A stretch of DNA of 64,000 nt from an uncultured Anaerolineales bacterium (lineage in GTDB: Bacteria > Chloroflexota > Anaerolineae > B4-G1 > SLSP01): NCBI GenBank assembly GCA_964508025.1, contig CAZDSF010000009.1, positions 7,310 through 71,309 of the forward strand. The letters run 5' to 3'. Shown here piece by piece: positions 3,855 to 19,111 of this stretch. Every line of letters begins with the position of its first letter. Positions within the stretch are counted from its first letter, which is position 1. The notes beneath the pieces were generated by a model. The model saw only the letters and a list, made by a program, of their open reading frames with translations, did no database searches and was not told where the DNA came from. A program made the translations under genes and the position numbers.

Positions 3855-3983
3855 TCGGGATGTTGCCCCCATCAAGGCTATATTATACGCCAAACCGAAA
3901 TCCCGTCAAGCGAAAAATTCCGCTCGAAATCTTTAGCTTTAGCCGCTTTTTGTCGCGCCAAACGGGATAATGCTGAACAGTTA

Positions 3984-4487
3984 TCAAGTCGGGTTCGAGT
4001 TCTGTGATCGCAGACGCGGCCACACACGTTGCTGTTTCCAGACCAACCCTGCCTCATCCAACCACGTCCAGATGGTGGAATCAGAAAGATAGACGTTGTG
4101 ACGCTCGACAAAAGCATGTTGTAAGCCTTTCAGATGCCACGAATCGTAGGGATACCCCAAATCTCGCGGCCTTTGCAGCGCCAGTTTGATCAACGCTTGT
4201 TTCACTTCCGGCCCATGGATGGGCGACCGACCGGGGCGCTCACGATCCTCCAGGCCCGCTAACCCCTCAGCATTGAAACGCCGCACCCATATCGGACCAA
4301 CTTGAGGGCTTTGAAAACCTGCCCGCAATCCCGCTTCGGACGCTGTCAGCGTGGGGTCTTCAATCATTGCCGCGATGATTTTTGCTCTTTGTACCAAACG
4401 TGGGGGTTTCAATTCTGATGCCGCTGTCGCCTTAATCGCAATAATCTCTTCATTTTTCATTTTTCTTAAACGCAAATGCTGAGGCAT
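3984..4487 (-). pseudogene. Truncated IS630/Tc1-family transposase (N-terminal HTH region only, no DDE domain)
   Basis: 167-aa ORF with paired HTH motifs typical of IS630 OrfA (ALIKLALQRPRDLGYPYDSWHLKGL..., LSDSTIWTWLDEAGLVWK). The ORF ends before any catalytic domain. Confidence 0.6.
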
Positions 4488-4538
4488 GAATAGAGGACAC
4501 CATGATTATATCTCAGTTATTTAGCGAGAAAATAATTA

Positions 4539-4567
4539 TTGACAAATGGATACCAATGCATTACTAT
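4539..4567 (+). promoter_or_regulatory. Sigma70-like promoter TTGACA-N17-TACTAT inside an AT-rich patch (4490-4640)
   Basis: Near-consensus hexamers with 17-nt spacing; the local AT-rich patch is atypical for this genome. Confidence 0.4.
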
Positions 4568-4813
4568 TGTATTACGAAAGCGTTAATTTTACGTTACGGA
4601 AATTTTAATACACATCTGAGAGCCGAGGCGCCAATAACACTCAAAGCCTCGGAGTTGCGCCGCAAGGCTTCCCCAAATCTGCACACTGGGGAAAGATAAG
4701 GCCACCACAAAAGGACGCCATAAATCGCCTTGAACCATTGCGTATTCTACCCATCTTCCATCTCGAAAGATATCGAAAGGGCACCGAAAGGACACCGAAA
4801 GGACAAAGGAAAA

Positions 4814-5128
4814 ATGACGATCAAAGAGATTCAAATTGCGATTGCGGTGAGCTTGTTCGCAATGGGCCTGTGTTCTTGCATCGCGGGTCTTTGGGCGATG
4901 CTGTCGCGCCGCTACCGACAGATGCTCCACCAAATTTCGGCGCAATCCACGGTGGCGACCAGCAAGGCGCTCACCAATGTGGCGCTGGCGCCATTGGTGG
5001 ATTCGTTCACCGGTTTGGTCAATGCGATCAACGAACTGATCCGCACTTCGATTGGCGTAGGCGTTTTTCTCTGGCTAATTGGCGTAGGACTCTGCATGGC
5101 TGCCTTTTGGATGCTCTCGCTGGTGTGA
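4814..5128 (+). CDS. Small membrane protein (104 aa, 2-3 TM helices)
   Basis: Hydrophobic segments IAIAVSLFAMGLCSCIAGLWAML and IGVGVFLWLIGVGLCMAAFWMLSL; A-rich RBS. Its stop lies 6 nt before the next start. The overlapping 4738-frame reading is low-complexity (rejected). Confidence 0.55.
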   Translation: MTIKEIQIAIAVSLFAMGLCSCIAGLWAMLSRRYRQMLHQISAQSTVATSKALTNVALAPLVDSFTGLVNAINELIRTSIGVGVFLWLIGVGLCMAAFWMLSLV

Positions 5129-5133
5129 GGCGG

Positions 5134-8100
5134 ATGATGACCACACAAGCTACACAAACCGACAGTTGCGACACGGCGCGACGCGCGCTGCCGCTTGAAC
5201 GCCGATTTCTGCTGCAATACCTTCGGGCGGTGCGCGACGCTCCGCGCCTGGCTGCGACGGCGCAACGCTACATCCCGCTGGAACTGCAGCTCGAATCTGG
5301 AGGGGGCGCACAAGATGCCATAGAAGCCACGCGCAATCGAAATGCCATGTTTGTGATCGGGGGGCTGGGCAGCGGCAAAACAACTTTCCTGCATACTCTG
5401 TTTTGGAATCTCGCAGCAGAAGGGCTGGCCGCACCCCACAGTGCAACAAGCCCTATTCCCTTTTTCCTCGATCTGACTGAATTCGATGCCCACACCGCCA
5501 TAGAAACGCTGCTCCTGCATGCGACGCAGCAATACCTACCGGCAGCGACCCCGGAAATAATGGCGGCATTCCTGCGGCAAAGGCAGGCAGTGTACTTGTT
5601 CGATAACGTGGATGCCCTCGAGTCATCCAGCAGGGAGCGACTTTACGCCTGGATTGCTGGCGAGCAACAGGCGCGCCGTGATATTCGCTACATCCTCGCC
5701 TGCCGCCCCGACATGCCAACCTCTGCTGCGTGCACCGTTGCGCTGCCGTTGGAGCAGCTACACCTCCTGCCGTTGCGGGATCGCAGCGTGGATGCCTTCA
5801 TCGAACGGCAGGCTGCGCCAGAAATCGCCGTCACCATCCAGAAACAGTTGCGCCAGGATGCCGCCGTGTGGGAGTTGGCGCATACCCCACTCTTTCTACA
5901 AGCCGCGCTGCGCCTCGCAGAGCGCACGGATGCCCGAACGCCCTGGTGGAGCCGATGTGCAATCATCCAGGAGGCCCTCTCCCTGACGCAGAAGCCTTCC
6001 ACCGCCGGCATAACCGTGTGGCTCAACACGGTGGGGCGCACACTTGCCGAGATCGCCTTCATCCTCCAGCAAGCCCAAACATCGCAGATAGAGGTTTCCA
6101 GGCTCACGGAACTCATCAGCAAGACCGGGTTGCCCGCATCCAGAATCTACGAGAGCGGTTTACTGGTTTCAAAAACCGGCGATGATGAAGTCGCCTTCAT
6201 CCATGGCTTAATTCAGGAATTTTTCGCCGCCCTGGCTTTGAAATTCAGGCTGGGAACAACCTTCTCATGCAGCCATCTCGTGCGCGAGCCACAAAGCCTG
6301 ACCGTGTGGCGCGGCGTCCTAATACAATTGTACGGGCTTGTCGAAGATCGCAAAACCTTAGTTGGGAATTGGGTGGCGGAGGGGGCAACCGCTGGACTGG
6401 CAGAGCTGCTTGCAAACTGCACTGTAAACAATGACCTGCCACACCAACTACCCGAGAAAATCCGAGAGATCGCGCGGCTGACGGAATCCAAAGCCACGCT
6501 CTTCAGGCTCGGCGCGGCGTTGAAACGTCAGGGAGCGACCGAAGCAGCTACGACCGCCTTGCTCGAGACGCTCAATCGCGAAACGGCGACCACAAGTGAA
6601 CGCAGCGCGCACAGCATCGCCCCTACGTCTGACACGGGTGGCACCTCCATGGATCAGATTCGGCAGCGGCTCCAACTGGGACGGATTCAGCGAGAACTGG
6701 ATCGCCCAGCGCAAGCCCTCACGGAGTTGCGCGCCGCCAGCGCCGAGATCGAGCGCCTCCACGCCGAGATCCGTTACGAGATGGGGCTGACCTTCCAGGC
6801 GCAAGGGCAGGCAGAGGCAGCGCTAACGGAATTTCTCCAGGCGCAGGCGCGCGATGCGCACTCGGCGGTGTACGCCTACGAGGTTGGGGCCGCCCTCAAT
6901 CGTTTAGGGCGCTACCGCGATGCGTTGACGCCGCTCAACGCTGCGCTCGAACAGGCGCCAAACATGACGGCTGCCCATCGAGAGCTGGCACATGCCTATG
7001 CGCAGCAACATTGGGCGGAGGAGGCGGAACGCATTCTGGCAAAAGCGCTGGAATTGCAGCCAGAGGATGGCGAGCTGTGCTATGACATGAGCGTCCTGCT
7101 GGCGCAGAGAGGCGCGGCGGCGCAGGCAAAGGTCTACTTGCAGCGCGCGCTCAGCCTGCACCCCGACCGCGCAGCGTGGCACGATGCCCTGGGTAGACTG
7201 CATCAACAAGAGGCAACGGATTTCCATGCCGCCCGGCAGGAGTTTGAACAAGCCATACTGCTCGATCCAACATGCGCCGCGACCTGGGGGCATCTGGGAA
7301 CGCTCTACCAGCGGCAAGGGGAACCGAACAGGGCTGCGGCGTATTTGCACCGTGCAGTAGCGCTCGAACCCGAATGCGCCGCCTGGCATGGCGCGCTGGC
7401 CGACTGTCTGCGTGCGCAGAACAACTTCAGCGAAGCCGCCGCAGCCTACCAACGCGCGTTACAGCTGGGCGCGGAATGCGCAGAACACTATCACGGGCTG
7501 GCAACGTGCCTCTATCACCAGGGATGCCACGAGGAGGCGCTGCTGGCGCTCAGAGAAGCAACGCAACTGGCGCCCGAATTTGCGCCAGCATACGCACTGA
7601 TGGGGCAAATCCATGCGGAGCAGCAACGCCCTGAGGCGGCGCGCCAGGCCCTGCTGCTGGCTTGCGCTACCGAACCGGCGCAGGCGCGCCATTACCAGGC
7701 ATTGAGCCGCTTCTACATCCAGGCAGCCGAGCCGCATCTCGCGCTCGAAGCGGTACAACGCGCGCTGGAAATCCAACCCGATCTTCACAGCGCCTATGAC
7801 CAGCAAGGCCACATCTATGAGCTGCTGGGCGCGGATACTGAAGCCCTTTCCGCCTACACCAAGGCGCTGGCGCTACAACCAACCGAGGGGACTTACGCCC
7901 TTCATGCCGGCATCATCGCGCAACGGCTGGGGCAACACGATGCGGCGCTGGCGTTTTTGAAGCAGGCGGAACCGCTGCTGCCAGACAATCCCGCGCTGTA
8001 CTATCACTTGGGCGAGCTCTACCAGGAGCGCCGCGACTACGAAAACGCCCGTGCTGGCTTCCATAAGAGCGTGACCTTACAGCCGGATGAGCCGGCCTAT

Positions 8101-11100
8101 CACGCGCGGCTCGCCGCGACAGCCTACCGCCTGGGACGTCTGGATGAGGCGCAACGCGAAGCTCTCAACGCGCTCAAACTTAAGCCCGGCGCAGCAGAAC
8201 TCTATAGCCTGTTGGGTCAAATTGCAGAAACGGAAGCGCGTCACGAAGAAGCGCGCGCCTATTATCAAGAGGCGCTCACGGCAGAACCAGAAGCGATAAC
8301 CCACCGTTGCCGGCTGGCAGCCCTGTATCGCCGACTGGAACGCCACACAGAAGCCGAAGCCGTGCTCATGGAGGCGCTGGAAATCGCGCCGACGAACGCA
8401 ACGCTGTACCACGAACTGGCGCAACTCCACGAGGCTCGCGGTGCAACAGCGCTGGCGCTGGAAGCCTATGCGCAAGCCATCGCGCTCGATCCGCAGCAAC
8501 CGGAATTTCTACTCAGCAAAGGCCGCTTCCTACGGCAACTACAGCGTCTCAACGATGCGCTGACAATGTTGGAGCGGGCGCTGAGGCTCGATCCCACATT
8601 GGCTGAGGCGCATTACCAGCTCGGGCAGATCTACGAGCTGCAGGGGCAAGCACAAAATGCCATGAGCGCCTATCGTCAAGCCATCGCTGCCGCGCCGGAG
8701 AGGGCCGAGCCGGCCTACGCTTATGCACGCCTGTGCCTGCAAGCGCATAACATCGAAGCGGCTATCAGCAGCTTACAGACAGTCGTGCAACTGCGCCCCG
8801 ATTGGGCGGAAGCGCATTACCAGCTCGGCAGCGCGTATCACCAACAACACGCCTGGGATGCTGCGCATGTGCATCTCGAACGCGCCAGCGCGCTAGCGCC
8901 GGAAAACGCCGCCTATCGCGCCGCTATTGGAGCCAACTACCAGCAATCAGGCAACTTCACAGAGGCGTTAACCGCTTACCAGATAGCCGGACATCTGGCG
9001 CCGGAGAACATCCACTACCGCCGGATCATCGCGGGGCTTTACAGACAGCTGGGTCAGGTAGATGATGCACTGGCTACGCTGAGAGACGCGCTCAATCTGG
9101 ATCCGGAGAATCCAGGGCTGTATGCCGAGTTGGGACAGACGTTAATCGCCAAGGGCCAGTTGAGCGAGGCGCTCAGTCAATACTTAAACGCGGCAGACCT
9201 GGCGCCGCACAGAGCAGAGTATTACCGGCAGATGGGCGTGATTTTGCGCCAGTTAGGAGACCAGAATCAGGCGCTCAAGATGTTGAAAACAGCCGCCGAA
9301 CTGGCGCCTGAAGATGCCGAAGTGCACGATGCCTTGGGACAACTCTATCACGAACGCGCGCAATACATCGCAGCCGTGACAGAGTTCGAGGAAGCCGTGA
9401 CATTGGCGCCTGAAATGGCCGTTTACTGGCAGCGCTTTTCTCGCAGCTTGTGCGCCTTGGAGCGCTACGAACGCGCGTTGGAGGCGGCGCAGCGCGCCAT
9501 TGCGCTCGCGCCACATGCCGCGGAAATGCACGCCCAGCTTGCCGCCATCTATGCGCAACAGCAACACTTCGAAGAAGCGCTCAGCGAATATCGCTATGCC
9601 AGCGCGCAAGAACCGCAAAATCCGATCTACCACTGCGCTGTGGGCGCCACCCTCTACGCACTGGAACAGTTTGAGCCGGCGATCCAGGCGCTTAGTGAGG
9701 CGATACAACACAATCCCGGAAGCGCCGAAGCCTACCGCTGGTTGGGCGCAATCTATGCGCGGCAGGGAGAAACAGAGAACGCTCTGAATGCTTATCAGAA
9801 CGCGATCAAGTTGGAGCCTGAAAACCCCATCCATCAACACAACATCGGGCTGTTTCTCTGGCATCTTCAACGCTATGAGGAGGCGCACGCAGCGCTACAG
9901 CGGGCGCTTGCTCTCAATCCCGATGACGCCGAAGCGCACTACATTCTAGGGCAGTTATACGAAACGCGAGGAGAAAATGCAAATGCCCTCGATCAATATC
10001 ACCAGGCAAGCCTGTTACAACCCAAGCAGCGCGACTATCGGCAAGCTTATGGGATTGCCCTGCGGCAAGCGCAACGTTACGAAGAAGCGCGCCAGGTCTT
10101 GACTGAGATTCTGGCAGAAGATACCGCAAACGCGGAGGTGTATTGGCAGATGGGCGCACTATTCGAAGCCACAGGCGACTTGCAAGCCGCGTGGCAGGCT
10201 TACACCAAAGCGGCAACCCTCCAACCAGCGGCGCTGCGCTATCAGCTGCATGCCGCAATGGCTCTCGGCGCGCTGGGAAGGCAAGCCCTGTTATTGCAGC
10301 AGGCAGGTATGGCAACCGACATGCCCGCTGGAACGGAGATCGCCAGCGTCATCCACAACCTGCGCCAGGCGCTTACGCACAGCCAGGACGATACGGCAAC
10401 ACGCGCAGCGCTGGGCGAGATTCTGATGCTGAACGGCGAAACGGAAGAAGCCATTCTGCACCTGCAACGCGCGGTGGAAGCCGCTCCGCACAGTGCTGCA
10501 TATCATCGCAATCTGGGTACCGCATTCCGGCTCAAAGGCGACTTCCAGCAAAGCCTGCGCGAACTGCGCGTGGCTGATGTTCTCGCCCCTGAGGATCCCG
10601 AAATTCAATACGAGCTGGCATTGAGCTACCGCGCCCTGGGAGAAACCGCAGAAGCGGCCAGGAAACTGGCAAAAGCCGCAGAAGCCAAACCCGCTGAAGC
10701 ACTGTATCAATACGCGCTAGGACAGACCTTGCGGCAAGTGGGACACCTTCAAGAAGCCAGCGCCGCGTTATCCAAAGCCATCAACCTGAATGCCGGCGTC
10801 GCGGCGTGGTATCACGAATTGGGGAATATCTTCTACGCACAGCGCCGCAATCACGTCGCCCTCGAACAACATCTGCGGGCTGCCGAGCTCGAACCGGAGA
10901 ATGCGGCATATCTGCACGCCGCTGCCCGCGCCTACAGCGACATCGGGAACGACAAACAAGCCATCCTGCTCCTGGAACAAGCGTTGCAACGCGAGCCATC
11001 CAAAACGGATTGGTGGCTGGAGCTTGGAGACGCCTATCAACGCCAGACACACACCCTCCAGGCGCGCGAAGCCTATCAGCAAGCGGCGACACTGGCGCCA

Positions 11101-11898
11101 GACAATCCAGAATGCCTGCTCAAACTGGGCGCAGCGGCAATGGCGTTAGGCGAGTTGGATGAGGCGCAGGCACGCTACAACCGCGCCGTTGCCCTCAAAC
11201 CCGATTACGCCCCCGCCTACAAGCATCTGGGAGAACTCCATGCCCAAAAGATGGCCTGGGACGATGCGCTGCGCGCCTACCAGCGCGCGCTCCAATTGGA
11301 GCCAGAAGATGCCGAGACGCACTACCACCTCGGCAGAATTTACCAGATGCTGGCCCGTTATCCAGACGCGGTGGAACATCTGGAGCAAGCCATCGCCTTG
11401 AATCCGAAGGCGCTTGAGCCTTATGCCCCCCTGGGGATAACGTATGAAGCGCTAGAGCAGAACGATGAGGCGCTACAGGTTTATGAGCAAGCGCTCAGCA
11501 TAGCGCCGCACCGCATCGAAAACCATCTGCAAGTGGGACGGCTATGTCGCCGGCTGGGGCATCTCGATAAAGCCATCGCGCACTTCTTGCGCGGGGTAGA
11601 GCTCCAGCCCGACGCTGCCGGAGCCTATCACGAATTGGGCCAGACGTATGAGCTGCAGGAGCGCTACAGCGAGGCGCTCACCGCTTACCTCGAAGCTTTG
11701 CGGTTGGAGCCTTCGGTCGCCGATTACTACTACAGCGCAGGGCTTATCTACAAGCTCATGAAGCAATACACACAATCGGCAGCGATGCTCCGCGAGGCCA
11801 TCAAATTGCGCCCGGACGATGCCAATGTCTACAAGCAATGGGCGGCGGTCAGCGCCGTGTCCATTCTCTGGCAGCGGCAACGCGGCGCGGAAGCGTGA
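5134..11898 (+). CDS. Giant NACHT/STAND P-loop NTPase fused to ~45-50 tetratricopeptide repeats (about 2254 aa)
   Basis: Walker A GGLGSGKTTFLHTL, Walker B AVYLFDNVDALE, and the N-terminal signature typical of NACHT (RFLLQYL...YIPLELQ). The last ~1650 aa are continuous TPR units (AxxxYxxLG/AxxxxxxAL periodicity). Start taken at the ATG after the upstream stop. Confidence 0.75.
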   Translation: MMTTQATQTDSCDTARRALPLERRFLLQYLRAVRDAPRLAATAQRYIPLELQLESGGGAQDAIEATRNRNAMFVIGGLGSGKTTFLHTLFWNLAAEGLAAPHSATSPIPFFLDLTEFDAHTAIETLLLHATQQYLPAATPEIMAAFLRQRQAVYLFDNVDALESSSRERLYAWIAGEQQARRDIRYILACRPDMPTSAACTVALPLEQLHLLPLRDRSVDAFIERQAAPEIAVTIQKQLRQDAAVWELAHTPLFLQAALRLAERTDARTPWWSRCAIIQEALSLTQKPSTAGITVWLNTVGRTLAEIAFILQQAQTSQIEVSRLTELISKTGLPASRIYESGLLVSKTGDDEVAFIHGLIQEFFAALALKFRLGTTFSCSHLVREPQSLTVWRGVLIQLYGLVEDRKTLVGNWVAEGATAGLAELLANCTVNNDLPHQLPEKIREIARLTESKATLFRLGAALKRQGATEAATTALLETLNRETATTSERSAHSIAPTSDTGGTSMDQIRQRLQLGRIQRELDRPAQALTELRAASAEIERLHAEIRYEMGLTFQAQGQAEAALTEFLQAQARDAHSAVYAYEVGAALNRLGRYRDALTPLNAALEQAPNMTAAHRELAHAYAQQHWAEEAERILAKALELQPEDGELCYDMSVLLAQRGAAAQAKVYLQRALSLHPDRAAWHDALGRLHQQEATDFHAARQEFEQAILLDPTCAATWGHLGTLYQRQGEPNRAAAYLHRAVALEPECAAWHGALADCLRAQNNFSEAAAAYQRALQLGAECAEHYHGLATCLYHQGCHEEALLALREATQLAPEFAPAYALMGQIHAEQQRPEAARQALLLACATEPAQARHYQALSRFYIQAAEPHLALEAVQRALEIQPDLHSAYDQQGHIYELLGADTEALSAYTKALALQPTEGTYALHAGIIAQRLGQHDAALAFLKQAEPLLPDNPALYYHLGELYQERRDYENARAGFHKSVTLQPDEPAYHARLAATAYRLGRLDEAQREALNALKLKPGAAELYSLLGQIAETEARHEEARAYYQEALTAEPEAITHRCRLAALYRRLERHTEAEAVLMEALEIAPTNATLYHELAQLHEARGATALALEAYAQAIALDPQQPEFLLSKGRFLRQLQRLNDALTMLERALRLDPTLAEAHYQLGQIYELQGQAQNAMSAYRQAIAAAPERAEPAYAYARLCLQAHNIEAAISSLQTVVQLRPDWAEAHYQLGSAYHQQHAWDAAHVHLERASALAPENAAYRAAIGANYQQSGNFTEALTAYQIAGHLAPENIHYRRIIAGLYRQLGQVDDALATLRDALNLDPENPGLYAELGQTLIAKGQLSEALSQYLNAADLAPHRAEYYRQMGVILRQLGDQNQALKMLKTAAELAPEDAEVHDALGQLYHERAQYIAAVTEFEEAVTLAPEMAVYWQRFSRSLCALERYERALEAAQRAIALAPHAAEMHAQLAAIYAQQQHFEEALSEYRYASAQEPQNPIYHCAVGATLYALEQFEPAIQALSEAIQHNPGSAEAYRWLGAIYARQGETENALNAYQNAIKLEPENPIHQHNIGLFLWHLQRYEEAHAALQRALALNPDDAEAHYILGQLYETRGENANALDQYHQASLLQPKQRDYRQAYGIALRQAQRYEEARQVLTEILAEDTANAEVYWQMGALFEATGDLQAAWQAYTKAATLQPAALRYQLHAAMALGALGRQALLLQQAGMATDMPAGTEIASVIHNLRQALTHSQDDTATRAALGEILMLNGETEEAILHLQRAVEAAPHSAAYHRNLGTAFRLKGDFQQSLRELRVADVLAPEDPEIQYELALSYRALGETAEAARKLAKAAEAKPAEALYQYALGQTLRQVGHLQEASAALSKAINLNAGVAAWYHELGNIFYAQRRNHVALEQHLRAAELEPENAAYLHAAARAYSDIGNDKQAILLLEQALQREPSKTDWWLELGDAYQRQTHTLQAREAYQQAATLAPDNPECLLKLGAAAMALGELDEAQARYNRAVALKPDYAPAYKHLGELHAQKMAWDDALRAYQRALQLEPEDAETHYHLGRIYQMLARYPDAVEHLEQAIALNPKALEPYAPLGITYEALEQNDEALQVYEQALSIAPHRIENHLQVGRLCRRLGHLDKAIAHFLRGVELQPDAAGAYHELGQTYELQERYSEALTAYLEALRLEPSVADYYYSAGLIYKLMKQYTQSAAMLREAIKLRPDDANVYKQWAAVSAVSILWQRQRGAEA

Positions 11899-11907
11899 GA
11901 GACGCAC

Positions 11908-13605
11908 ATGAAACACGTACCCTTTCCCGCAGCCCCAAGCGCACCGGCATCCGCCCAAGTCGCCGCCAAAGCACTAGAGGAAGCGCAATTCGAGATGGAA
12001 AACTGGATCACCACATTGTTGGCAGAGGAGACACCGCCGCCGCCAACCCAGCCAGAGCGCACAGATACCGTCTATCTGATCGTTTCCAGCCGGCGCGCGC
12101 TGACCAGAAAATACGGCGCAGAAGGCTTCCGCCGTGTAGATGAGGCGCTCAACGCCTTACAGCAAGCCGTTGCCGCACATGTAAAACTCAACGCCCTTCT
12201 GGTTTATGTGGATGACGTCGCCTCGCTGACACCCTATAACCTGCAACCGGTAGACCCTGCTAATCCATGGCAGATTAAGGTGCTGATCGAACAAACAGCA
12301 ACTTATCTCAAGGGTCGGGAGCAGGATGTGCGCTATCTGCTCATCATTGGCGGCGATAGCATCATCCCATTTCACCGGCTTCCCAATCCTGTCAACGATC
12401 AGGATGCCGATGTACCTTCCGACAATCCCTACGCCTCGCAAGACACCAACTACTTCATCCCAGAAAGGGCGGTGGGGCGGCTGCCCGATGGCGAGGGCGA
12501 ACCCGTTTCGGTATTGTTAGACCTCATCCAGGAAGTCATTAACACCCACCGCAGGAGAACCACAGCCGCCAAAGGGCTTATCCACACGCTCTTACAAACG
12601 CTGCGTGCAAACGGGCGCAGAGAAGTCCTCAAAGTGGGCTGGGGCTATTCCGCCAGCATTTGGCGTAAGGCATCGCGGCATGTGCTGCAACACCTCGGCG
12701 ATGCCCAACCGTTGCGCATCTCTCCGCCGCTCACCTATCAGGAATTCAAGCGCCACACATATACGCCTTTCAACTATTTCAACCTCCACGGCATCGAAGA
12801 TGGCCCCAACTGGTACGGGCAACGCGACGCCCTCTTCCCGGCGGGATATGAGCTCTTTCCTGTGGCGCTCCGCCCCGAAGACCTCCAGATCGCCGATTAT
12901 GCCGGCTCGGTCATCTTCACCGAAGCTTGTTATGGCGCCAATATCCTGGGCAAGAACACCGGCGCATCCCTAGCGCTGAAGTTTCTGGCTTCGCGGGCAA
13001 GAGCCGTGGTTGGCTCCACCAAGGTAGCCTATGGCTCTATCGCGCCGCCGCTGATTGGCGCCGATTTGTTAGGCAAGCATTTCTGGAAAGGCATCCTTGC
13101 GCATCTGACAGTGGGTGAGGCGCTGAAATACGCCAAAGTCAATCTGGCGCGCGAAATGCAAGAACGGCAGGGATACCTCGATAGCGAAGATCAGAAAACG
13201 CTGATCAGTTTTGTGCTCTATGGCGATCCCGCGTCGCCGGGCACTCCTGATGGCAACATCGAGCTGCTGAGCAAAGCCCTGTGTCCGCCGCTGATTTACC
13301 AACGGCAGACCAAGGATCAGAAAAGCCTGATCTCTGAACAACTGGTCGCCACGGTAAAAAGCCGCATCGAGGCGAGCCTACCGCACCTGGCGCAAGCGCG
13401 CGTCCACGCCGCGCCGCTCGTCCTGAGCCATGGCGAGCTGACAACAGCCCACGCCAAATCACACACCGCGCGAAGGTCAGGCGCCAAGTGGGCTTTCACG
13501 CTCGAAAAGGACATTTCCGTCAATGGCGACAGCGCCCATCATCAAGTGGTTAAAGTGACCGTTGACGAGAATGGTGCGATTCTCAAAGCAGCGATGTCCA
13601 GATAA
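11908..13605 (+). CDS. Caspase-fold (clan CD, peptidase C25/gingipain-like) cysteine peptidase with a C-terminal ~80-aa extra domain
   Basis: YLLIIGGDSIIPF beta-strand, DVPSDNPYAS, His-Gly dyad FNLHGIEDG, then catalytic-type Cys in FTEACYGANI. Start lies 10 nt after the stop of the NACHT-TPR gene. The C-terminus is homologous to ORF 15230-15475. Confidence 0.55.
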   Translation: MKHVPFPAAPSAPASAQVAAKALEEAQFEMENWITTLLAEETPPPPTQPERTDTVYLIVSSRRALTRKYGAEGFRRVDEALNALQQAVAAHVKLNALLVYVDDVASLTPYNLQPVDPANPWQIKVLIEQTATYLKGREQDVRYLLIIGGDSIIPFHRLPNPVNDQDADVPSDNPYASQDTNYFIPERAVGRLPDGEGEPVSVLLDLIQEVINTHRRRTTAAKGLIHTLLQTLRANGRREVLKVGWGYSASIWRKASRHVLQHLGDAQPLRISPPLTYQEFKRHTYTPFNYFNLHGIEDGPNWYGQRDALFPAGYELFPVALRPEDLQIADYAGSVIFTEACYGANILGKNTGASLALKFLASRARAVVGSTKVAYGSIAPPLIGADLLGKHFWKGILAHLTVGEALKYAKVNLAREMQERQGYLDSEDQKTLISFVLYGDPASPGTPDGNIELLSKALCPPLIYQRQTKDQKSLISEQLVATVKSRIEASLPHLAQARVHAAPLVLSHGELTTAHAKSHTARRSGAKWAFTLEKDISVNGDSAHHQVVKVTVDENGAILKAAMSR

Positions 13606-13622
13606 CAATGGGGTGATGCCGC

Positions 13623-14051
13623 ATGTTACTCGGCGAATTTCACTGCACCACCAACGCAAACGGCAGCCTCATGTTGCCGCCGGTGCTTCGCAGCGCATTA
13701 AGCGCGGGACTTACCATCACCCGCGGCATAGATCGTTGTCTGATCCTCTACCCTGCCGGCAGTTGGCAAGCGCTCACAACGGCGGTACAGGAACGTCTGC
13801 GCCTTACCCGAGCGGCAGACCGCGCCTTTGCCCGCTTGCTCTTTTCGGGCGCGGCAGTCTGCGTCCCCGATGAGAATGGCTGCATCCCCTTGCCCGAAAA
13901 TCTGCGCCGCTATGCCGATATTCGCGCTGACGCCGTCATCGTAGGGGTGTACAGCCATCTCGAATTGTGGGATGCGCAGCGCTGGGCAACGCTCACGGCG
14001 CAGATGGAAGCGGATGCCGCACTCATGCGCGAGGACTATCTACTGGTATAG
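13623..14051 (+). CDS. mraZ: Transcriptional regulator MraZ
   Basis: MLLGEF... start and duplicated MraZ/SpoVT-AbrB-like halves (GSLMLPPVLR / GCIPLPENLRRYADI). Confidence 0.75.
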   Translation: MLLGEFHCTTNANGSLMLPPVLRSALSAGLTITRGIDRCLILYPAGSWQALTTAVQERLRLTRAADRAFARLLFSGAAVCVPDENGCIPLPENLRRYADIRADAVIVGVYSHLELWDAQRWATLTAQMEADAALMREDYLLV

Positions 14052-14148
14052 TGTCCAGAAAACAACCGCCCTGGTCTCGAAAGCCAGCAAAACAGATGAT
14101 TTTTCGTTCAGACCCGCACAATCGCGTTTCAGAAGGGAGTTATCCAAG

Positions 14149-15237
14149 ATGAAAACCGAAATGCTCGACAAAGCGCGTATCAAAGTGATTGGCGTTGGCG
14201 GCGCCGGCTGTAATGCCGTTGACCGCATGATCCAAATCGGAATTCCCGGCGTCACCTTCGTCGCAGCCAATACCGATACACAAGCACTCGTGCAATCAGA
14301 AGCGCCGTGCAAAATCTGTTTGGGACCGAATCTGACCCACGGACTTGGCGCCGGGGGCAACGCCGAGATCGGGCGCAGGGCGGCGCAAGAGAGCCAACGC
14401 CTGCTCGGTGAAGTGATGCAAGATACAGACATGGTCTTCATCACCGCGGGGATGGGCGGGGGAACGGGAACCGGCGCCGCACCGGTTATCGCGCGGCTGG
14501 CGCGTGAAGCCAATGCCCTGAGCATCGCCATCGTCACCCGACCCTTCGCCTTCGAAGGCCCCCGCCGCCAGGAGGCCGCGAAAGAAGGCATCGAACGGCT
14601 GCAAGAAGCGGTTGACGCCCTTATCATCGTCTCCAATGACCGGTTGCTGGAAGTGGTCAGCAAGCGCATTCCCCTGGGCATCGCCTTTCGCGTCGCCGAT
14701 GAGGTGTTAAGGCAGGGCGTGCAAGGCGTCACCGAGCTGGTCACCCATCCAGGGCTGATCAATCTCGACTTTGCTGATGTGAAGTCAGTGGTCAGCAACG
14801 CCGGCAGGACCTTGATGTCCATTGGGCACGCTGAAGGCAAAGATAAGGCGCTCGAAGCGGCGCGCATCGCAGTAGAGAATCCGCTGATGGACATCGAGAC
14901 GCTTCAGAACGCCGAGAACTTGCTGGTGAACTTCAGCGGCGGCGAAGATCTCACCCTGGCCGAGGTCAGCGAGGCCATGGATTACCTGGCCCAGACAGCC
15001 AAACCAGAAGCGCAGATCTTTTTCGGCGCAGTCATTGATCCCCATATCAAAGGCAATGTGCAGATTACGCTCATTGCGACCGGCCTGGATGCGCAATCCA
15101 ATCACCCGCCGGCCCGCACGGCAACGCGGGGCGCGCGCCGGCACACGCTGGCAGAGTTGCTGGGGGATACTTATGTCATACCGGAATCGGCCTGTCCGCG
15201 CGTGACCACACGCCAGGAGGCGCTGCACCTTGGCTGA
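14149..15237 (+). CDS. ftsZ: Cell division GTPase FtsZ
   Basis: IKVIGVGGAGCNAV, tubulin signature GMGGGTGTGAAPVIA, T7 loop NLDFADV; RBS AGAAGGGAG. The long 13972 ORF start was rejected. Confidence 0.9.
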   Translation: MKTEMLDKARIKVIGVGGAGCNAVDRMIQIGIPGVTFVAANTDTQALVQSEAPCKICLGPNLTHGLGAGGNAEIGRRAAQESQRLLGEVMQDTDMVFITAGMGGGTGTGAAPVIARLAREANALSIAIVTRPFAFEGPRRQEAAKEGIERLQEAVDALIIVSNDRLLEVVSKRIPLGIAFRVADEVLRQGVQGVTELVTHPGLINLDFADVKSVVSNAGRTLMSIGHAEGKDKALEAARIAVENPLMDIETLQNAENLLVNFSGGEDLTLAEVSEAMDYLAQTAKPEAQIFFGAVIDPHIKGNVQITLIATGLDAQSNHPPARTATRGARRHTLAELLGDTYVIPESACPRVTTRQEALHLG

Positions 15238-15475
15238 GCTGGAACCTCGTCACATTGCCCAGGCCACACGGGCGGTAATTGCGCAATTTCCGGAGATGCG
15301 CGGCGTCGAGCCAACGCTTAGCGCGCAGAGCATACCGGGTTCGCCACCCCGGCAGCACTATATCCTCACCTTTGCGCAGCAGGTGAAAGTATCGGCCCAC
15401 GAGACGCTGCAACGACGGGTGCGCGTCACCATGAACCAGGATGGCGAGATCATCAAAATCACAGCATCCAGATAA
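15230..15475 (+). CDS. Small protein (81 aa) homologous to the C-terminal domain of the C25-like peptidase
   Basis: C-terminal ...VRVTMNQDGEIIKITASR versus peptidase ...VKVTVDENGAILKAAMSR (10/18 identical), plus N-terminal similarity. Probable TTG start 10 nt after GGAGG, overlapping the ftsZ stop. Confidence 0.45.
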   Translation: MAELEPRHIAQATRAVIAQFPEMRGVEPTLSAQSIPGSPPRQHYILTFAQQVKVSAHETLQRRVRVTMNQDGEIIKITASR

Positions 15476-15531
15476 TGCGGAGATTTTCATCCTTCCGCCT
15501 TCATCATTCATCCTTTCAGAGGAGCACCCCC

Positions 15532-18500
15532 ATGACTTATCTTTCGACTCAAAATCCAGTAACCAGACCGGCGGCGACCCCTCCGTCTTTGGCCTCGAAA
15601 TCCAAAACCTTCGTGATGCCAAACAAGTTGGGCATCCACGTATTGCGCGCCACGCCAGACCTCCTGGCATTCATCGCCGCCAAACCGGCGGTGATCAAAT
15701 TCGCAGGCGATTGGGAACACGCGCAGAGCGCGCTGCCGGGTACACTGGTGATCGGGCAATTACCATCAACCGCGCAAGATGAGACGTGGCGACCCGGAGC
15801 ACAGAATCCAGAGCAGGCTGCCAGAGACTTCGTCGCCGCACACCGGGAATTCTACCAAGCCCATGCCTACATCCCCTACTGGGAAGGCCCCCATCAAATC
15901 ATACCGCGCGACCACGGCGACTTGCATTGGTATGCCCGCTTCGAAATAGAGCGGATGAACTTACTACAAACATTGGGTTTCAAATGCGTCATTGGCAACT
16001 TCGCTGTGGGCGCGCCGGAACTGGCGCTGTGGCCGGCCTTCTTGCCCGCCATCGAAGCCGGCATCCGGCGCGAAGCCCTGCTCGGCTTGCACGAATACAG
16101 CTGGCCCTGGATGTGGTGGCTAACGGGCAAATATCAGATGTTGCCCGGAGACGATCAGGAAGACGAGGGCTGGAGCACCCTGCGCTATCGCCAAGTCTAC
16201 CGGCAATACCTCCTGCCTCGAGGCCTGCAAATTCCCCTGGTCATCAGCGAATGCGGCATTGATCCAGAAGTCAAACCGCTGCTGCTCACTACCGCCGCCG
16301 GCGACTGGAACGAACCGGGAGCATATTGGGCGGGGCCGGAGCATGAAGCAGACAACGCCGCCCCCTATTTCCGACAACTGGCATGGTACGAGGCTGAATT
16401 GGGGAAAGACCCCTACGTCATAGGCATGGCAATCTCCACGTGGGGCCACTTCAACGGACAGAACAAAGATTCCAATATTGCCGACTCTCCCATCGCCGAA
16501 AAACTGCGCCAACGGGCCAAAGCCCATCCGGCGCGGCCCTTCGATTATCACAAACTCACCGGCGTACAGCCCCAGGCTGGTTATGTTCCGCCGCGCACGG
16601 CTTACCGCCGCACCTACATTCTGTTACCGCAGATCCAAGACACCTTCGAGCGCCTGGAGTGGCGCATGGCAGCCGCCATCGGCTCCTCGGTGCAACTGCG
16701 CACCCTGGGCCATTCAGCAGACGACGCCGGCGTGGGGCCAGAGGCGCGTGAAATCATCGCCGTCAATCCCCAAGCCTGGGATGCCGAGCTTCAAGCCTGG
16801 TACGAACAGCACTATCCCGGCGCCGAGTATCAGGCCCTCCAGGCATCCACCCCTTGGGAAATGGCGCTCAAACTCATACCGCCGCTGGAGGATGATATTG
16901 CACTGGCGCAGATTGATCCACGCTGGGCGGATTACAATTTCGGCGAAATCCCCTACGACACAGAGACCATCGGACGCGCCGGCTGCTTCATCACCGGCCT
17001 GGCGATGATATTACGCAAGCACTATCAACGCGACGTAACGCCGCCGGTGCTCGACAAAATCCTGGTTGCCGCGCGCGGCGCCTACGTTCAAGACAACATC
17101 CTGGTCTGGCCGGACACGATCCCACTGTTTCCCATTTTCGATCAGAGCATCAAAGATAACGTCCAACGCACCGCCGCGCAGCTCGAGGAGCTGCTGCGCA
17201 ACGGCTGGGAAATCATCCTGCGCCGGGCGGATGGCGGGCACTTCGTCTATCTGGAGAAAGTACTAGGCGACACATTACAGATCATTGATACGTGGGATGG
17301 CAAACGCAAGCGCCACACCGCCGACGCCTATCGCGGCATCCGCGCGGCGCGGTTGCGGAGAACGCCCCTGCCGGAACCCGAGCTCTCTGGGATGACGAAC
17401 ATCAGCAGCCTGACGCCGCGCGAACCTTACCGCCGCACCTATGTACTTCTGCCGCAGCTCCAGGACACCGTCGAGCAGCTGACCTGGCGCACCGCTGCCG
17501 CCATCGGCTCCGCCGAGCAGCTGTGTACCCTGGGCCACTCCGCCGATGACGCCGGCGTAGGCCCGCTGGAACGTGAAATCATCGCCGTCAATCCGCGCGC
17601 GTGGGGCAGCGACCTCAAAGCCTGGTATGATCGGCACTATCCCGCCGCGGAGTACCGGGCTATCGAGACCGAAAGCCCCTGGGAGATGGCCGTCCAGATC
17701 ATGCCGCCATTGGAAGATGACATTGCGCTCGCGCAGAAAGACCCGCGTTGGGGCCGCTACGACTTCGGCGCCGAGCCGGACCCTCACGGCGGCGCGGAGA
17801 CCATCGGGCGCTACGGGTGCTTCCTCACCGGCTTCGCCATCATCCTGCGCAAAATTTACGGGCGGGATGTCACCCCACCCTTGTTGGATAAAATCCTGGT
17901 GGCATCAGGCGTGGGCTATGTGAACGATCACTTCATGGCGTGGGAAACCGCGATCCCCATTTTCCCGGCTTTCGATGGGCATCTCAAGGACAACCTCAGT
18001 CGCTCCGCCCGTGAACTAGAACGGTTGCTGGAAGACGGCTGGGAGATCATCCTGCGCCGGGCCGATGGCGCGCACTTCGTCTACCTGGAGCGCGTGGAAG
18101 GCGACACGCTGCACATCATTGATACCTGGGACGGCCAACGCAAGCGCCACGCGGCCAGCGCCTATCGCGGCGTGCGCGCAGCGCACATCAAAGCGCGACC
18201 CAAGCGCCCTGCGCCGGCGAAAATCCTGGTGGGGCTGCACGATCTGCGCGGCGCGGAATGGATGGTCAGCCAAAAGCTACGGGGTTGCTGCCTGGTACAT
18301 TCGGTGGTGCAGCGGAAGGCAGCGCCGCTGGATTTGCGGCATCTCCAGAATGCCGGCATCACCGTGATTGCGCGACTCAACTGGGGCTACGCCGATGGCA
18401 CAGGCACGTTGCCGCGCGCCGAGCACCGGGACGCCTTTATCAACGCCGTCGCCGAGACAATCCTGAACACGCAAGGTGTGGATTACTTCCATGTGGGCAA

Positions 18501-19095
18501 CGAGCCGAACAATCGCTCCGAGTGGCCCGGCTACCGCACCGGCAATGAGTTCCCACTCACGCCGCAGTATGTAACGCAAATCTATAATGCTATATGGGAA
18601 AAAGTGGGAGGACGGGCCAAACTCGGCCCGCCGCCCATTGATCCCTACTTTGGCCCCGGCTCCAACAACCGCGATTGGTGGACGTATATACTGGATAACA
18701 TCACCGACGCGGATGCACTCTTCCTCCATGCCAAGACGCAGACGAACAACCCGGCAGAAGTTTGGTCGCGGGTGCGCTTCACGGATCACCCGCTCACGTG
18801 GCAATACCTGCACCTGCGGACAGTGGAAACCTCGTTAGCGCTGACGCCGGAGCGTTTCCGCGATTTGCCGGTCTTTGTGACGGAACTCAACCCGCAATGT
18901 GTGGACACCATCGGGGGCAACATCGGTTGGCTGGCAGATAACGCCAGGTGGGTTCACGAAGCCCTGCGCTATTTTCGGCAAGAGCAACCGGTCAACGGGG
19001 TGGTGTTCTACCGCTACGAACGCGCAGGGGATCAAACGCCTTTCGGGTTGGAAGCCATGCCCACAGTGCTGGCAGCGATCAAGAAAGAAGCGTGA
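15532..19095 (+). CDS. Multidomain putative cell-wall hydrolase: GH-A-clan TIM barrel + 2x peptidase C39-like domains + second GH-A-clan TIM barrel
   Basis: N- and C-terminal domains are mutually homologous and carry GH-A signatures (GNFAVGAPE/LHEYSW/VISECGID versus VGNEPNN/LFLHAKT/VFVTELNPQ). The middle holds two ~275-aa repeats with the Cys motif ETIGRAGCFITGLAMIL and the His motif DGGHFVYL, typical of C39-like papain-fold peptidases. Confidence 0.6.
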   Translation: MTYLSTQNPVTRPAATPPSLASKSKTFVMPNKLGIHVLRATPDLLAFIAAKPAVIKFAGDWEHAQSALPGTLVIGQLPSTAQDETWRPGAQNPEQAARDFVAAHREFYQAHAYIPYWEGPHQIIPRDHGDLHWYARFEIERMNLLQTLGFKCVIGNFAVGAPELALWPAFLPAIEAGIRREALLGLHEYSWPWMWWLTGKYQMLPGDDQEDEGWSTLRYRQVYRQYLLPRGLQIPLVISECGIDPEVKPLLLTTAAGDWNEPGAYWAGPEHEADNAAPYFRQLAWYEAELGKDPYVIGMAISTWGHFNGQNKDSNIADSPIAEKLRQRAKAHPARPFDYHKLTGVQPQAGYVPPRTAYRRTYILLPQIQDTFERLEWRMAAAIGSSVQLRTLGHSADDAGVGPEAREIIAVNPQAWDAELQAWYEQHYPGAEYQALQASTPWEMALKLIPPLEDDIALAQIDPRWADYNFGEIPYDTETIGRAGCFITGLAMILRKHYQRDVTPPVLDKILVAARGAYVQDNILVWPDTIPLFPIFDQSIKDNVQRTAAQLEELLRNGWEIILRRADGGHFVYLEKVLGDTLQIIDTWDGKRKRHTADAYRGIRAARLRRTPLPEPELSGMTNISSLTPREPYRRTYVLLPQLQDTVEQLTWRTAAAIGSAEQLCTLGHSADDAGVGPLEREIIAVNPRAWGSDLKAWYDRHYPAAEYRAIETESPWEMAVQIMPPLEDDIALAQKDPRWGRYDFGAEPDPHGGAETIGRYGCFLTGFAIILRKIYGRDVTPPLLDKILVASGVGYVNDHFMAWETAIPIFPAFDGHLKDNLSRSARELERLLEDGWEIILRRADGAHFVYLERVEGDTLHIIDTWDGQRKRHAASAYRGVRAAHIKARPKRPAPAKILVGLHDLRGAEWMVSQKLRGCCLVHSVVQRKAAPLDLRHLQNAGITVIARLNWGYADGTGTLPRAEHRDAFINAVAETILNTQGVDYFHVGNEPNNRSEWPGYRTGNEFPLTPQYVTQIYNAIWEKVGGRAKLGPPPIDPYFGPGSNNRDWWTYILDNITDADALFLHAKTQTNNPAEVWSRVRFTDHPLTWQYLHLRTVETSLALTPERFRDLPVFVTELNPQCVDTIGGNIGWLADNARWVHEALRYFRQEQPVNGVVFYRYERAGDQTPFGLEAMPTVLAAIKKEA
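16603..18252 (+). repeat. Intragenic tandem duplication (2 x 825 bp, ~65% aa identity) encoding two C39-like peptidase modules
   Basis: Identical 17-mers CTTACCGCCGCACCTAC at 16601 and 17426. The amino-acid repeats start YRRTYILLPQIQDT and YRRTYVLLPQLQDT and end ...DTWDGKRKRH and ...DTWDGQRKRH. Confidence 0.8.
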
Positions 19096-19111
19096 GGGCC
19101 AGGAGAAAAAA

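Follow-up and report, generated by a model that had tools for sequence, protein, structure and literature searches.

The gingipains RgpB and Kgp of Porphyromonas (MEROPS C25, clan CD) are secreted virulence factors with a His-Gly...Ala-Cys dyad and a small extra domain behind the catalytic domain. In separase, the eukaryotic protease paired with securin (C50), scaffold and protease form one polypeptide. TPR-CHAT (Csx29, of the type III-E CRISPR 'Craspase'), SAVED-CHAT and the CHAT anti-sigma factor DdvA serve defence or regulation as accessory modules linked to CRISPR or CBASS signals, and the bacterial NACHT/Avs-type STAND proteins, patchy in distribution, combine a fused N-terminal effector with a NACHT module and a sensor array. 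The architecture of NACHT, TPR and caspase fold is otherwise typical of conflict and cell-death systems, and such STAND/caspase-like systems are enriched in multicellular bacteria, including the Chloroflexi (PMC7159879). The cluster analysed here, which lies beside ftsZ throughout the filamentous Anaerolineae, is an undescribed one. Its copy in the window, the 64,000-nt stretch of an uncultured Anaerolineales genome on which this analysis is based, consists of three genes:

4814-5128, + strand: gene for a 104-aa TM protein, a membrane hairpin
5134-11898, + strand: giant scaffold gene, 2254 aa, NACHT then TPRs
5359-5385, + strand: Walker A of the giant, within the NACHT NTPase module (aa 1-~500)
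~6871-11817, + strand: TPR array of the giant, about 48 TPRs
11908-13605, + strand: peptidase gene, 565 aa, gingipain-fold, C25-like
12787-12789, + strand: catalytic His294 of the peptidase (His-Gly)
12928-12930, + strand: catalytic Cys341 of the peptidase (Ala-Cys)
13336-13602, + strand: PepSY-like C-terminal domain of the peptidase (aa ~477-565), ending Ser-Arg

An earlier, sequence-only reading of this DNA had recognised the three genes, their domains and their tight coupling, all of which hold, with intergenic gaps of 5 and 9 nt in place of the 6 and 10 nt it gave. The small protein, rightly called a TM protein, shows hydrophobic segments by hydropathy at aa 5-31 and 75-104, i.e., two TM helices around a ~45-aa, probably cytoplasmic loop whose motif is kept across 58 orthologues; it matches no Pfam, NCBIfam or PADLOC family. 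Hydrophobic segments are confined to this protein within the set, which places the giant and the peptidase in the cytoplasm. The NACHT P-loop NTPase proposed for the giant is recovered by Pfam PF05729 (37.0 bits, cutoff 26.7, aa 72-225), and its orthologue profile matches the NACHT domains of NAIP, NLRC4 and NLRP9 in the PDB, with Walker A (GGLGSGKTT), the Walker B Asp and the sensor-1 Arg kept in orthologues. As in the NACHT/Avs-type STAND proteins, a sensor-like array follows, comprising about 46-50 TPRs (~45-50 had been estimated) in a 34-aa register from ~aa 580 to 2228, with a single break at 1698-1755. In contrast to those proteins, the giant has no fused N-terminal effector, matches no PADLOC model of the NACHT or Avs families, and is conserved and syntenic. 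Moreover, the NACHT module is an optional part of it: the arm is confined to the window's clade and a few others, and beyond the window's clade and its relatives none of the 41 full-length orthologous giants has it, 32 of these being from the long-peptidase clade B. Within clade A, to which the window belongs, the scaffold carries the NTPase N-terminally, and a nested subclade has lost it again.

The third gene had been assigned to a clan-CD, C25-like peptidase with a His-Gly...Ala-Cys dyad, correctly so: the caspase fold is present, and 84/84 relatives have the same His294-Gly295 and Ala340-Cys341, together with many surrounding residues. The window peptidase directly matches no Pfam or NCBIfam model, while distant members of its family (717 clusters at 50% identity, E <= 1e-30) score on Pfam PF01364 (L075, 52.6 bits). 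Compared to the gingipains, with which it shares about 15% sequence identity, the protein is cytoplasmic, lacks a signal peptide, a gingipain-type prodomain and a T9SS C-terminal domain, and is encoded with a TPR scaffold beside ftsZ. Its extra C-terminal domain, considered unusual in the sequence-only reading, is normal in gingipains as far as its presence goes, and differs in adopting a PepSY-like fold (alpha + 4 beta) rather than an Ig-like one. The domain has no sequence-profile match to PepSY, whose known representatives (M4/M36 propeptides, YpeB, FoxB), unlike it, are extracytoplasmic and regulate metallopeptidases, and its invariant C-terminal Ser-Arg/Lys is no PepSY feature. Two loops near the active site (aa 220-283 and 298-319) are of low confidence in the structural model, and this might be taken to favour a non-catalytic pseudo-protease or a PorU- or GPI8-like transpeptidase, serving as a mere adaptor or ligase on the TPR scaffold. 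We consider this very improbable, as the invariance of the dyad and its surroundings argues against a dead enzyme, although the sequence would also be compatible with ligase chemistry. A PorU role does not apply, since the peptidase has no signal peptide and, to our knowledge, Chloroflexota have no type IX secretion system.

The trio lies, as had been stated, between tRNA-Asn/rlmB and mraZ-ftsZ, the latter followed by two further genes:

2930-3676: SpoU/RlmB-type methylase, flank
3779-3854, - strand: tRNA-Asn, flank
13623-14051, + strand: mraZ, 17 nt past the peptidase gene
14149-15237, + strand: ftsZ, 362 aa from an MKTEM start
15230-15475, + strand: p81, 81 aa, overlapping the ftsZ end and ending Ser-Arg
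15475-19095, + strand: p1206, 1206 aa, its start overlapping the p81 stop

The mraZ product scores 81.4 bits on Pfam MraZ, in two domains, and 89.2 bits on TIGR00242, slightly below the cutoff of 98.35. The gene between peptidase and ftsZ varies by clade: mraZ holds this place in the window's clade A only, and g452 in the other. FtsZ (Pfam Tubulin and FtsZ_C; equivalog TIGR00065 at 395.6 bits, cutoff 295.2) was assigned its start in part from orthologues of 362-363 aa, and its relatives end in the canonical C-terminal peptide. p81 is a stand-alone paralogue of the peptidase C-terminal domain with the same PepSY-like fold, and both almost always terminate in Ser-Arg/Lys; an R or K ends the chain of 83/84 and 119/120 peptidases and of 53/55 and 120/120 p81 proteins, compared with 22% of background ORFs. 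p1206, the last gene ahead of a strong hairpin (19110-19139), contains an internal duplication, is conserved (57-68% identity) in closer relatives only, and bears weak local similarity to the g452 family, whose genes stand ahead of ftsZ in other lineages. By eye only, p1206 also shows papain-like (Cys...His) and glycosidase-like (NEP, TELN) motifs. From 5134 to 19095 the + strand has no terminators, and genes along this stretch are separated or overlap by tiny distances; on this spacing, the trio is probably co-transcribed with ftsZ, and both the 17-nt gap ahead of mraZ and the terminator-free run through ftsZ argue for co-expression.

Within the class Anaerolineae, the cluster of which the trio is the window's copy is core and vertically inherited. 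Relatives of the peptidase are encoded by at least 555 Chloroflexota species genomes, the count being a lower bound obtained by scanning MAGs with a pattern. In 57/57 related Chloroflexota loci of sufficient length, the three genes follow one another in the same order; likewise, the 104-aa protein gene is found in all 57 loci with sufficient upstream sequence, and an orthologous giant (1650-2350 aa) in 57/57. The identities of the peptidase rise and fall with those of FtsZ (r = 0.91) and of the TM protein (r = 0.93). Since ftsZ lies within 10 kb of the trio in 43/50 loci but not in the remaining 7, the linkage is strong rather than absolute. Contigs chosen independently, by p81, present giant-peptidase-g452-ftsZ-p81 among plsX, fabF and fba in 4/4 cases, and in loci with a permuted gene order the trio remains adjacent to g452-ftsZ-p81. 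The cluster is also present in one MAG labelled Ca. Limnocylindria. The invariant core comprises the two-TM hairpin and two cytoplasmic proteins, namely a giant made of TPRs throughout and a gingipain-fold peptidase with His and Cys intact, and is physically coupled to ftsZ and p81.

This distribution bears on the proposal of the sequence-only reading that the trio is an accessory, NTP-dependent conflict or abortive-infection cassette, in which a STAND (NACHT-TPR) sensor detects an invader through its TPRs and a caspase-like effector brings about abortive infection or programmed cell death; such a module, where conserved, might serve altruistic death in multicellular filaments. Several features are consistent with it: the NACHT motifs are intact and conserved in the clade that has them, the long TPR array accompanies a protease whose caspase fold appears active, TPR-CHAT/Csx29 and SAVED-CHAT, both defence proteases, are among the structural neighbours, and the upstream region contains an IS-derived gene and an AT-rich patch. 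Nevertheless, we regard this scenario as improbable. The trio is core and syntenic, its divergence tracks that of FtsZ, its neighbours are housekeeping genes and not defence islands, and the NACHT module, on which the STAND analogy was based, is absent from the 41 giants mentioned above. The survey of such systems does not list a C25/gingipain-type one (PMC7159879), and, in contrast to TPR-CHAT and its kin, the window's protease is C25-like, not CHAT, and has no CRISPR/CBASS context. PADLOC gave TPR-driven matches only and none specific to defence, no relatives were found in phages or viral contigs, and plasmids gave just distant matches, to C25 peptidases of ~27% identity whose context is different. 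The reading had itself named universal conservation beside ftsZ as evidence for a housekeeping role, and as the trio is conserved there, an accessory defence function is unsupported.

In most lineages the trio is preceded by a sigma-54 (-24/-12) promoter and, before that, by a dedicated pair of genes for a histidine kinase and its partner, a REC-AAA+ sigma-54 activator. A strict pattern finds the element upstream of the trio in 24/57 loci, against 0.01 expected per locus, and HK and EBP genes, or rpoN, lie upstream in relatives. The best reading, in which we place moderate confidence, is a regulated, membrane-tethered proteolytic module tied to septation. The conserved cytoplasmic loop of the hairpin would tether the TPR superhelix to the membrane, and the superhelix would act as a scaffold that recruits and restrains the peptidase, as suggested by the TPR-peptidase fusions among orthologues and the 4-nt overlap of the giant and peptidase genes in some relatives' contigs. 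The role of the C-terminal Arg/Lys is a matter of conjecture: the -Ser-Arg/Lys-COOH tail of the peptidase domain and p81 might be a ligand for a TPR carboxylate clamp, or else a product-like plug, fitting an Arg/Lys-specific S1 pocket; under both options p81, produced alongside FtsZ, could act as a competitor or regulator of the peptidase. The module may thereby carry out limited, signal-gated proteolysis in connection with septation or the fragmentation of filaments, with gating through the two-component/sigma-54 input and, in the window's clade, also through nucleotide binding by NACHT. A parallel might be struck with separase-securin, which the logic of such a module would resemble more than an abortive-infection switch, both then being division-linked with a small partner protein as plausible regulator. 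This resemblance is one of logic and fold, not of orthology, and does not extend to a cohesin-like substrate.

Synteny with ftsZ is not proof of a division role. The trio could instead be a conserved housekeeping module that lies near ftsZ for historical rather than functional reasons. It would be a TPR/protease complex tethered to the membrane and engaged in protein maturation, quality control, or the biogenesis of envelope or sheath, with g452 and p1206 as its real partners. TPR giants act as scaffolds of a generic kind, 7/50 loci lack the linkage, the gene intervening before ftsZ differs between clades, and p1206 and g452 show hydrolase-like motifs by eye and no division-related domain. We deem this possibility rather unlikely, as the ftsZ-p81 adjacency outlasts gene-order permutation, p81 shares both the domain and the tail of the peptidase while overlapping the end of ftsZ, and the tight, terminator-free spacing through ftsZ suggests co-expression.

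In the window's own subclade, an AT-rich, sigma-70-like promoter beside an IS630-derived HTH gene replaces the sigma-54 element, none of which was found in the window:

3984-4487, - strand: IS630-type HTH-only gene, 167 aa, divergent from the operon (Pfam HTH_32, 61.9 bits)
4539-4567, + strand: sigma-70-like promoter TTGACA-17-TACTAT, 10/12 match, ~245 nt before the first start codon
4764-4805, + strand: CGAAAG(G/A) x4 direct repeat, 10-11 nt period, running into the ribosome-binding site

The AT-rich patch (4501-5000; GC 0.48 versus about 0.6 on both sides) and its near-consensus promoter, the sole + strand promoter site in 3600-5200, are as had been described, and so are the purine-rich repeats before the first RBS. 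Four copies of CGAAAGR, with an 11-nt tandem unit, start at 4764, 4774, 4785 and 4796; they are specific to the window genome, relatives retaining just the RBS-proximal GAAAGGA, and the trio leader contains no Rfam elements. The neighbouring gene had been taken for a decayed IS630 transposase. It does cover the HTH half only (positions 28-122 of 299 of the NCBIfam model, 64.8 bits, cutoff 100), without a DDE domain or space for one before tRNA-Asn. Decay, by contrast, is not borne out: the gene occupies the same place in five related species, with orthologues in L001, L002, L007 and L008 at 66-70% aa identity, and is under selection, with dN/dS of 0.06-0.12 (0.114 for the unsaturated pair L002/L007).

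The locus in the window is built around three co-directional genes with intergenic gaps of 5 and 9 nt, which code for a TM hairpin protein, a giant NACHT-TPR protein and a C25-like peptidase (together, the trio); these are followed by mraZ, ftsZ and the genes for two proteins that we call p81 and p1206 after their lengths. The features, with the trio genes taken from the ORF listing and translation, are as follows:

3984..4487, minus strand: IS630-like, HTH-only ORF of 167 aa, divergent, corresponding to the HTH half of IS630 transposases
4539-4567: promoter-like site TTGACA-17-TACTAT upstream of the trio
4764-4805: tandem repeat of four CGAAAGR copies with a 10-11 nt period, running into the RBS
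4814..5128, plus strand: TM protein gene, 104 aa
5134..11898, plus strand: giant protein gene, 2254 aa
11908..13605, plus strand: peptidase gene, 565 aa
13623..14051, plus strand: mraZ, starting 17 nt past the peptidase gene
14149..15237, plus strand: ftsZ, with MKTEM as the true start
15230..15475, plus strand: p81 gene, an 81-aa ORF overlapping the end of ftsZ
15475..19095, plus strand: p1206 gene, a 1206-aa ORF whose start overlaps the p81 stop

No convincing plus-strand terminator was found over 5134-19095, and a strong hairpin lies at 19110-19139, after the p1206 gene; judging by gene spacing only, we infer that the genes from the trio to ftsZ would be co-transcribed. The mraZ gene directly abuts ftsZ (13623-15237), and none of rsmH, ftsL, ftsI or the mur genes intervenes. 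A similarly reduced order, mraZ-mraW-ftsZ-ftsA, is reported for the Dehalococcoidales (PMC10608941), but the window is without mraW and ftsA.

Relatives of the peptidase number in the thousands, all in Chloroflexota metagenome bins, and a pattern scan with one genome per species placed them in at least 555 species genomes, labeled Anaerolineae, Anaerolineales, Thermoflexales, Ardenticatenales or Chloroflexota, plus one Ca. Aquidulcis bin; all these relatives are MAGs, and the universality obtained from the scan is a lower bound. ORFs were called in 85 related loci, which were then searched with every window protein. The TM, giant TPR and peptidase genes follow one another in this order in all 57 loci that reach 7.5 kb or more upstream, and ftsZ together with a p81 ORF lies inside the locus in 43 of the 50 that have both flanks. 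Peptidase identity to the window tracks that of FtsZ (r = 0.91) and of the TM protein (r = 0.93), as expected from vertical co-inheritance. Four further contigs, reached independently via p81 homologues, all display the order giant TPR, peptidase, a gene for ~425 aa, ftsZ and p81 (4/4), with plsX, fabF and aldolase genes as neighbors. These patterns show the trio cluster to be a vertically inherited core operon adjacent to ftsZ. One subgroup has the block of g452 (an unannotated gene), ftsZ and p81 just upstream of the TM gene, not downstream of the peptidase; therefore, the adjacency of the trio and ftsZ has outlasted rearrangement. The main alternative, namely that this is a housekeeping TPR/protease complex whose ftsZ neighborhood is merely historical, is in our estimate somewhat unlikely.

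The sequence-only reading had seen in the trio an accessory conflict cassette, with a STAND NTPase and a caspase-like protease, and had named universal conservation next to ftsZ as the pattern that would refute this. The comparative analysis of the ftsZ interval found just such conservation, and the accessory-defense idea is not supported; the intact trio in 57/57 loci, its presence in at least 555 species genomes, its co-divergence with FtsZ and its housekeeping neighbors all run counter to that idea. Thus, we are highly confident that the gene cluster belongs to the core genome and is not accessory defense: the reading's domain calls were correct and its function was wrong. A conserved cell-death or defense module might still be proposed, as systems of that kind typically have this architecture (PMC7159879), but we hold this to be unlikely, given that the same survey lists no C25-type system (PMC7159879) and that every distributional test points the other way. 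PADLOC, run on the trio, returned matches to the TPR region only (PDC-M71B at 41 bits, PrimPol and TPR) and none to the TM protein or the peptidase. With respect to Avs/bNACHT, the giant is a bona fide NACHT protein, yet the system is not a member, as three defining features are lacking. For the mining of defense systems this counsels caution—a NACHT-TPR protein, a caspase-fold protease and an IS-like gene together resemble an immune cassette, and here they belong to the core genome.

A neighbor-joining tree of the peptidases resolves two clades. Clade A, which includes the window, has peptidases of 565-625 aa and mraZ before ftsZ, and NACHT, which its early branches possess, has been lost in a nested subclade. 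The peptidases of clade B are longer, at 812-996 aa, owing to a TPR extension at the N-terminus; here NACHT is absent and ftsZ is preceded by g452. Long forms of the clade B type dominate the 717 clusters of the family (E <= 1e-30). Relatives of the peptidase were sought in phage records and viral contigs, with none recovered, and the plasmid matches are only remote C25 peptidases (27% identity) in a different context on Rhizobium megaplasmids. We considered these megaplasmid peptidases as mobile relatives and rejected them, since the context differs and the small protein encoded downstream has no evident similarity to p81. In both such loci, L086 (7653-9788; Rhizobium ruizarguesonis plasmid pTA1_2) and L087 (7980-9774), a C25 peptidase is followed by an all-beta protein of ~80 aa; in the former, a 101-aa two-TM protein precedes the peptidase, loosely echoing an order of TM protein, peptidase and small protein.

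The giant is recognized as a NACHT protein by Pfam (PF05729, 37.0 bits against a cutoff of 26.7, aa 72-225), as had been read from the sequence, and the profile of its orthologues matches the NACHT domains of NAIP, NLRC4 and NLRP9. It carries Walker A (GGLGSGKTT), Walker B (YLFDNVD) and sensor-1 (ILACRPD) motifs, and 15 orthologues retain the first Asp of Walker B as well as the Arg of sensor-1, with the second acidic residue being variable. The long TPR array was likewise upheld, with about 46-50 TPRs in near-perfect 34-residue register over about aa 580-2228. Walker A is confined to the giants of ~1900-2350 aa in the clade of the window and a few others, and the entire arm is absent from the remaining 41 full-length giants (1650-1980 aa), in which Pfam detects only TPRs and which start, where similarity is detectable, at the equivalent of window residue ~504. 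NACHT-less giants of this kind account for clade B as a whole and for the nested subclade within clade A, and NACHT is hence not an essential module of the system. NACHT is an addition to an older scaffold, restricted by clade and with more than one gain or loss; from the NACHT-less giants it follows that the core comprises the TM hairpin, the TPR giant and the peptidase. When homologues were sought for the NACHT arm by itself, just two proteins were recovered. Elsewhere in the window (41731-43992, minus strand) there is a second all-TPR protein, of 753 aa. The 104-aa protein has two hydrophobic segments, aa 5-31 and aa 75-104, and between them a loop of ~45 residues, the sequence of which is kept across 58 orthologues. 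No other protein of the set has a hydrophobic segment, and all but the hairpin are for that reason cytoplasmic.

Profile searches, which the sequence-only reading had proposed, bore out NACHT and TPR and left the window peptidase unmatched by the C25 model: against Pfam and NCBIfam it has no direct match, and PF01364 does not reach it even at E <= 10. The same model is found in its relatives, with the orthologue in L075 scoring 52.6 bits against a cutoff of 23 and all database relatives having a precomputed match. A sequence search against the PDB gave chance matches only, so that a fold search was required. The predicted structure has the caspase/hemoglobinase fold with the two-subdomain topology of gingipains, and its next structural neighbors are separase (15.5), PorU (14.8) and CHAT proteases (about 13), with Foldseek concordant. 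His294-Gly295 and Ala340-Cys341 are invariant in 84 of 84 relatives, and the call of a C25-like peptidase of clan CD with a His-Gly...Ala-Cys dyad thus holds for both the fold and the dyad. The sequence conservation shows an intact active site; that the protein is a pseudo-protease or a transpeptidase appears very unlikely, the dyad being invariant. The peptidase is a relative of the C25 gingipains by fold, though the window copy misses PF01364. Gingipains, however, are secreted, with a signal peptide, a prodomain and a T9SS C-terminal domain, whereas the window peptidase has no hydrophobic N-terminus and ends in a predicted PepSY-like domain homologous to p81. Some orthologues are TPR-peptidase fusions, and several relatives have a 4-nt overlap between the gene for the giant and that for the peptidase. 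The pair is not always contiguous, since L075 (complete chromosome OZ252150.1) carries an inserted 169-aa gene (7828-8337) between the two; its product looks PRC-barrel-like by eye.

The final ~95 residues of the peptidase are homologous to p81 by BLASTP (E 2e-5) and, for the C-terminal domain (13336-13602), by profile-profile comparison with hhalign (probability 98.9%, E 3.4e-17). In the p81 model (pLDDT 85.5), a helix packs on four strands, and both p81 and the peptidase C-terminal domain are predicted to be PepSY-like in fold. The p81 family has 616 members, none annotated. The two also share a Ser-Arg/Lys C-terminal end, found in 83/84 locus copies and 119/120 database relatives of the peptidase and in 53/55 and 120/120 p81 proteins; a basic C-terminal residue occurs in 22% of background ORFs. 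FtsZ of the window is genuine (TIGR00065, 395.6 bits against a cutoff of 295.2). Relatives bear the canonical C-terminal peptide (LD[IV]PAFLRRR in clade B, LAVPAFMRS in most of clade A), and in the window (15150-15237) and its five closest relatives it is degenerate (YVIPESA / FxFPEP), suggesting an altered interaction of FtsZ with its membrane anchor in this subclade. In clade B, ftsZ is always immediately preceded by a member of the g452 family (~420-470 aa; e.g., L049 11629-12987), including in loci of permuted order. p1206 has weak local similarity to g452 and an internally duplicated module with a papain-like Cys...His pattern, flanked by NEP/TELN glycosidase-like motifs (by eye only). 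Neither the TM protein, p81, g452 nor p1206 gave anything usable against Pfam, NCBIfam and PADLOC, with g452 and p1206 having no Pfam or NCBIfam match.

These components may be assembled into a model in which the TM hairpin would tether the TPR superhelix to the membrane and the TPR scaffold would dock the peptidase, while p81, produced with FtsZ, might compete with or regulate the peptidase domain. TPR proteins bind EEVD or SKL termini by a carboxylate clamp; because of this, the Ser-Arg/Lys-COOH tail could be a ligand of such a clamp, or else, resembling a cleavage product, it could plug an Arg/Lys-specific S1 pocket beside Cys341 and the invariant Asp164/166/172. The NACHT arm would add a nucleotide switch in the clade of the window, and the output would be signal-gated limited proteolysis tied to septation or filament fragmentation. 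We lean slightly toward this division-linked, regulated-proteolysis model as a whole. By logic, the systems that would come closest are separase/securin and the TPR-CHAT proteases. A more specific version is rather unlikely to hold in full: that Anaerolineae, and perhaps neighboring Chloroflexota classes, possess a hitherto unrecognized division-associated proteolytic machine in which a membrane-tethered superhelix of ~50 TPRs keeps a cytoplasmic protease of gingipain fold at the septum, the protease is regulated in securin-like fashion by a PepSY-like mini-protein, co-translated with FtsZ, via its Ser-Arg/Lys tail, and a sigma-54 two-component input (plus the NACHT switch in the clade of the window) turns the system on to control septation or filament breakage. 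If true, it would be a bacterial functional analogue of the control of division by separase. The common PepSY-like domain with its Ser-Arg/Lys end offers a testable hypothesis for the control of a cytoplasmic gingipain-fold protease.

Literature searches found no description of the trio/ftsZ gene cluster, and database annotations of the family read 'hypothetical protein', 'TPR repeat protein' or 'C25 family cysteine peptidase'; it is an undescribed scaffold-protease operon, linked to ftsZ across the class and assembled from domain families that are already known. Division in filamentous Chloroflexota is almost unstudied, and the one live-imaging study found states that none preceded it (bioRxiv 10.1101/2025.08.19.671072). 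As the cluster is class-wide, next to ftsZ and composed almost entirely of unannotated proteins, the hairpin, the TPR giant, the cytoplasmic C25-like protease, p81 and g452 are candidate lineage-specific factors for division or filament fragmentation.

The operon has a sigma-54/two-component input in most lineages. Under a strict pattern, 24 of 57 loci carry a sigma-54-type element, TGGCAC-N5-TTGCA, at 55-110 nt before the TM gene (expected 0.01 per locus), and nearly all of clade B does so once the pattern is slightly relaxed. Examples are:

L049, ~3238-3256: sigma-54 element
L063, ~3450-3468: sigma-54 element
L083, ~3407-3425: sigma-54 element
L026, ~3776-3794: sigma-54 element

Immediately before the element, the relatives have genes for a histidine kinase and an HTH-less REC-AAA+ activator; in L026, rpoN and an NtrC-like gene take their place. 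A search of window positions 1-20000 for a -24/-12 element (GG-N10-GC) gave no match, and the window has lost the sigma-54 and kinase/activator arrangement seen in its relatives. The upstream features reported from the sequence, namely an AT-rich patch (GC 0.48), a near-consensus promoter and the CGAAAGR repeats, are all present in the window. The fourfold CGAAAG repeat was considered as a conserved MraZ-type operator, given that the operon includes mraZ, and rejected: it occurs in no relative, and only an RBS-proximal GAAAGGA is common. Being unique to the window genome, it may be a strain-specific element. An Rfam scan of the 245-nt leader detected nothing but the tRNA.

Further upstream lie tRNA-Asn, a SpoU/RlmB-type methylase gene and the IS630-like ORF, taken earlier for a decayed transposase. 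The IS630-type HTH half stands, with matches to model positions 28-122 of 299 only; the decay does not, as the ORF holds its place in the five closest species and is under purifying selection, with a dN/dS of about 0.1 (0.06-0.12). No DDE transposase domain or decayed trace of one was found for it, and ~130 nt are left before tRNA-Asn. From these sequence comparisons, it is probably a retained, domesticated gene with a regulatory role. Elsewhere in the window, SufB (20531-22954, minus strand; 807 aa) contains an intein that bears a LAGLIDADG homing-endonuclease domain; its orthologue in the relative L002 is a 469-aa protein free of an intein.
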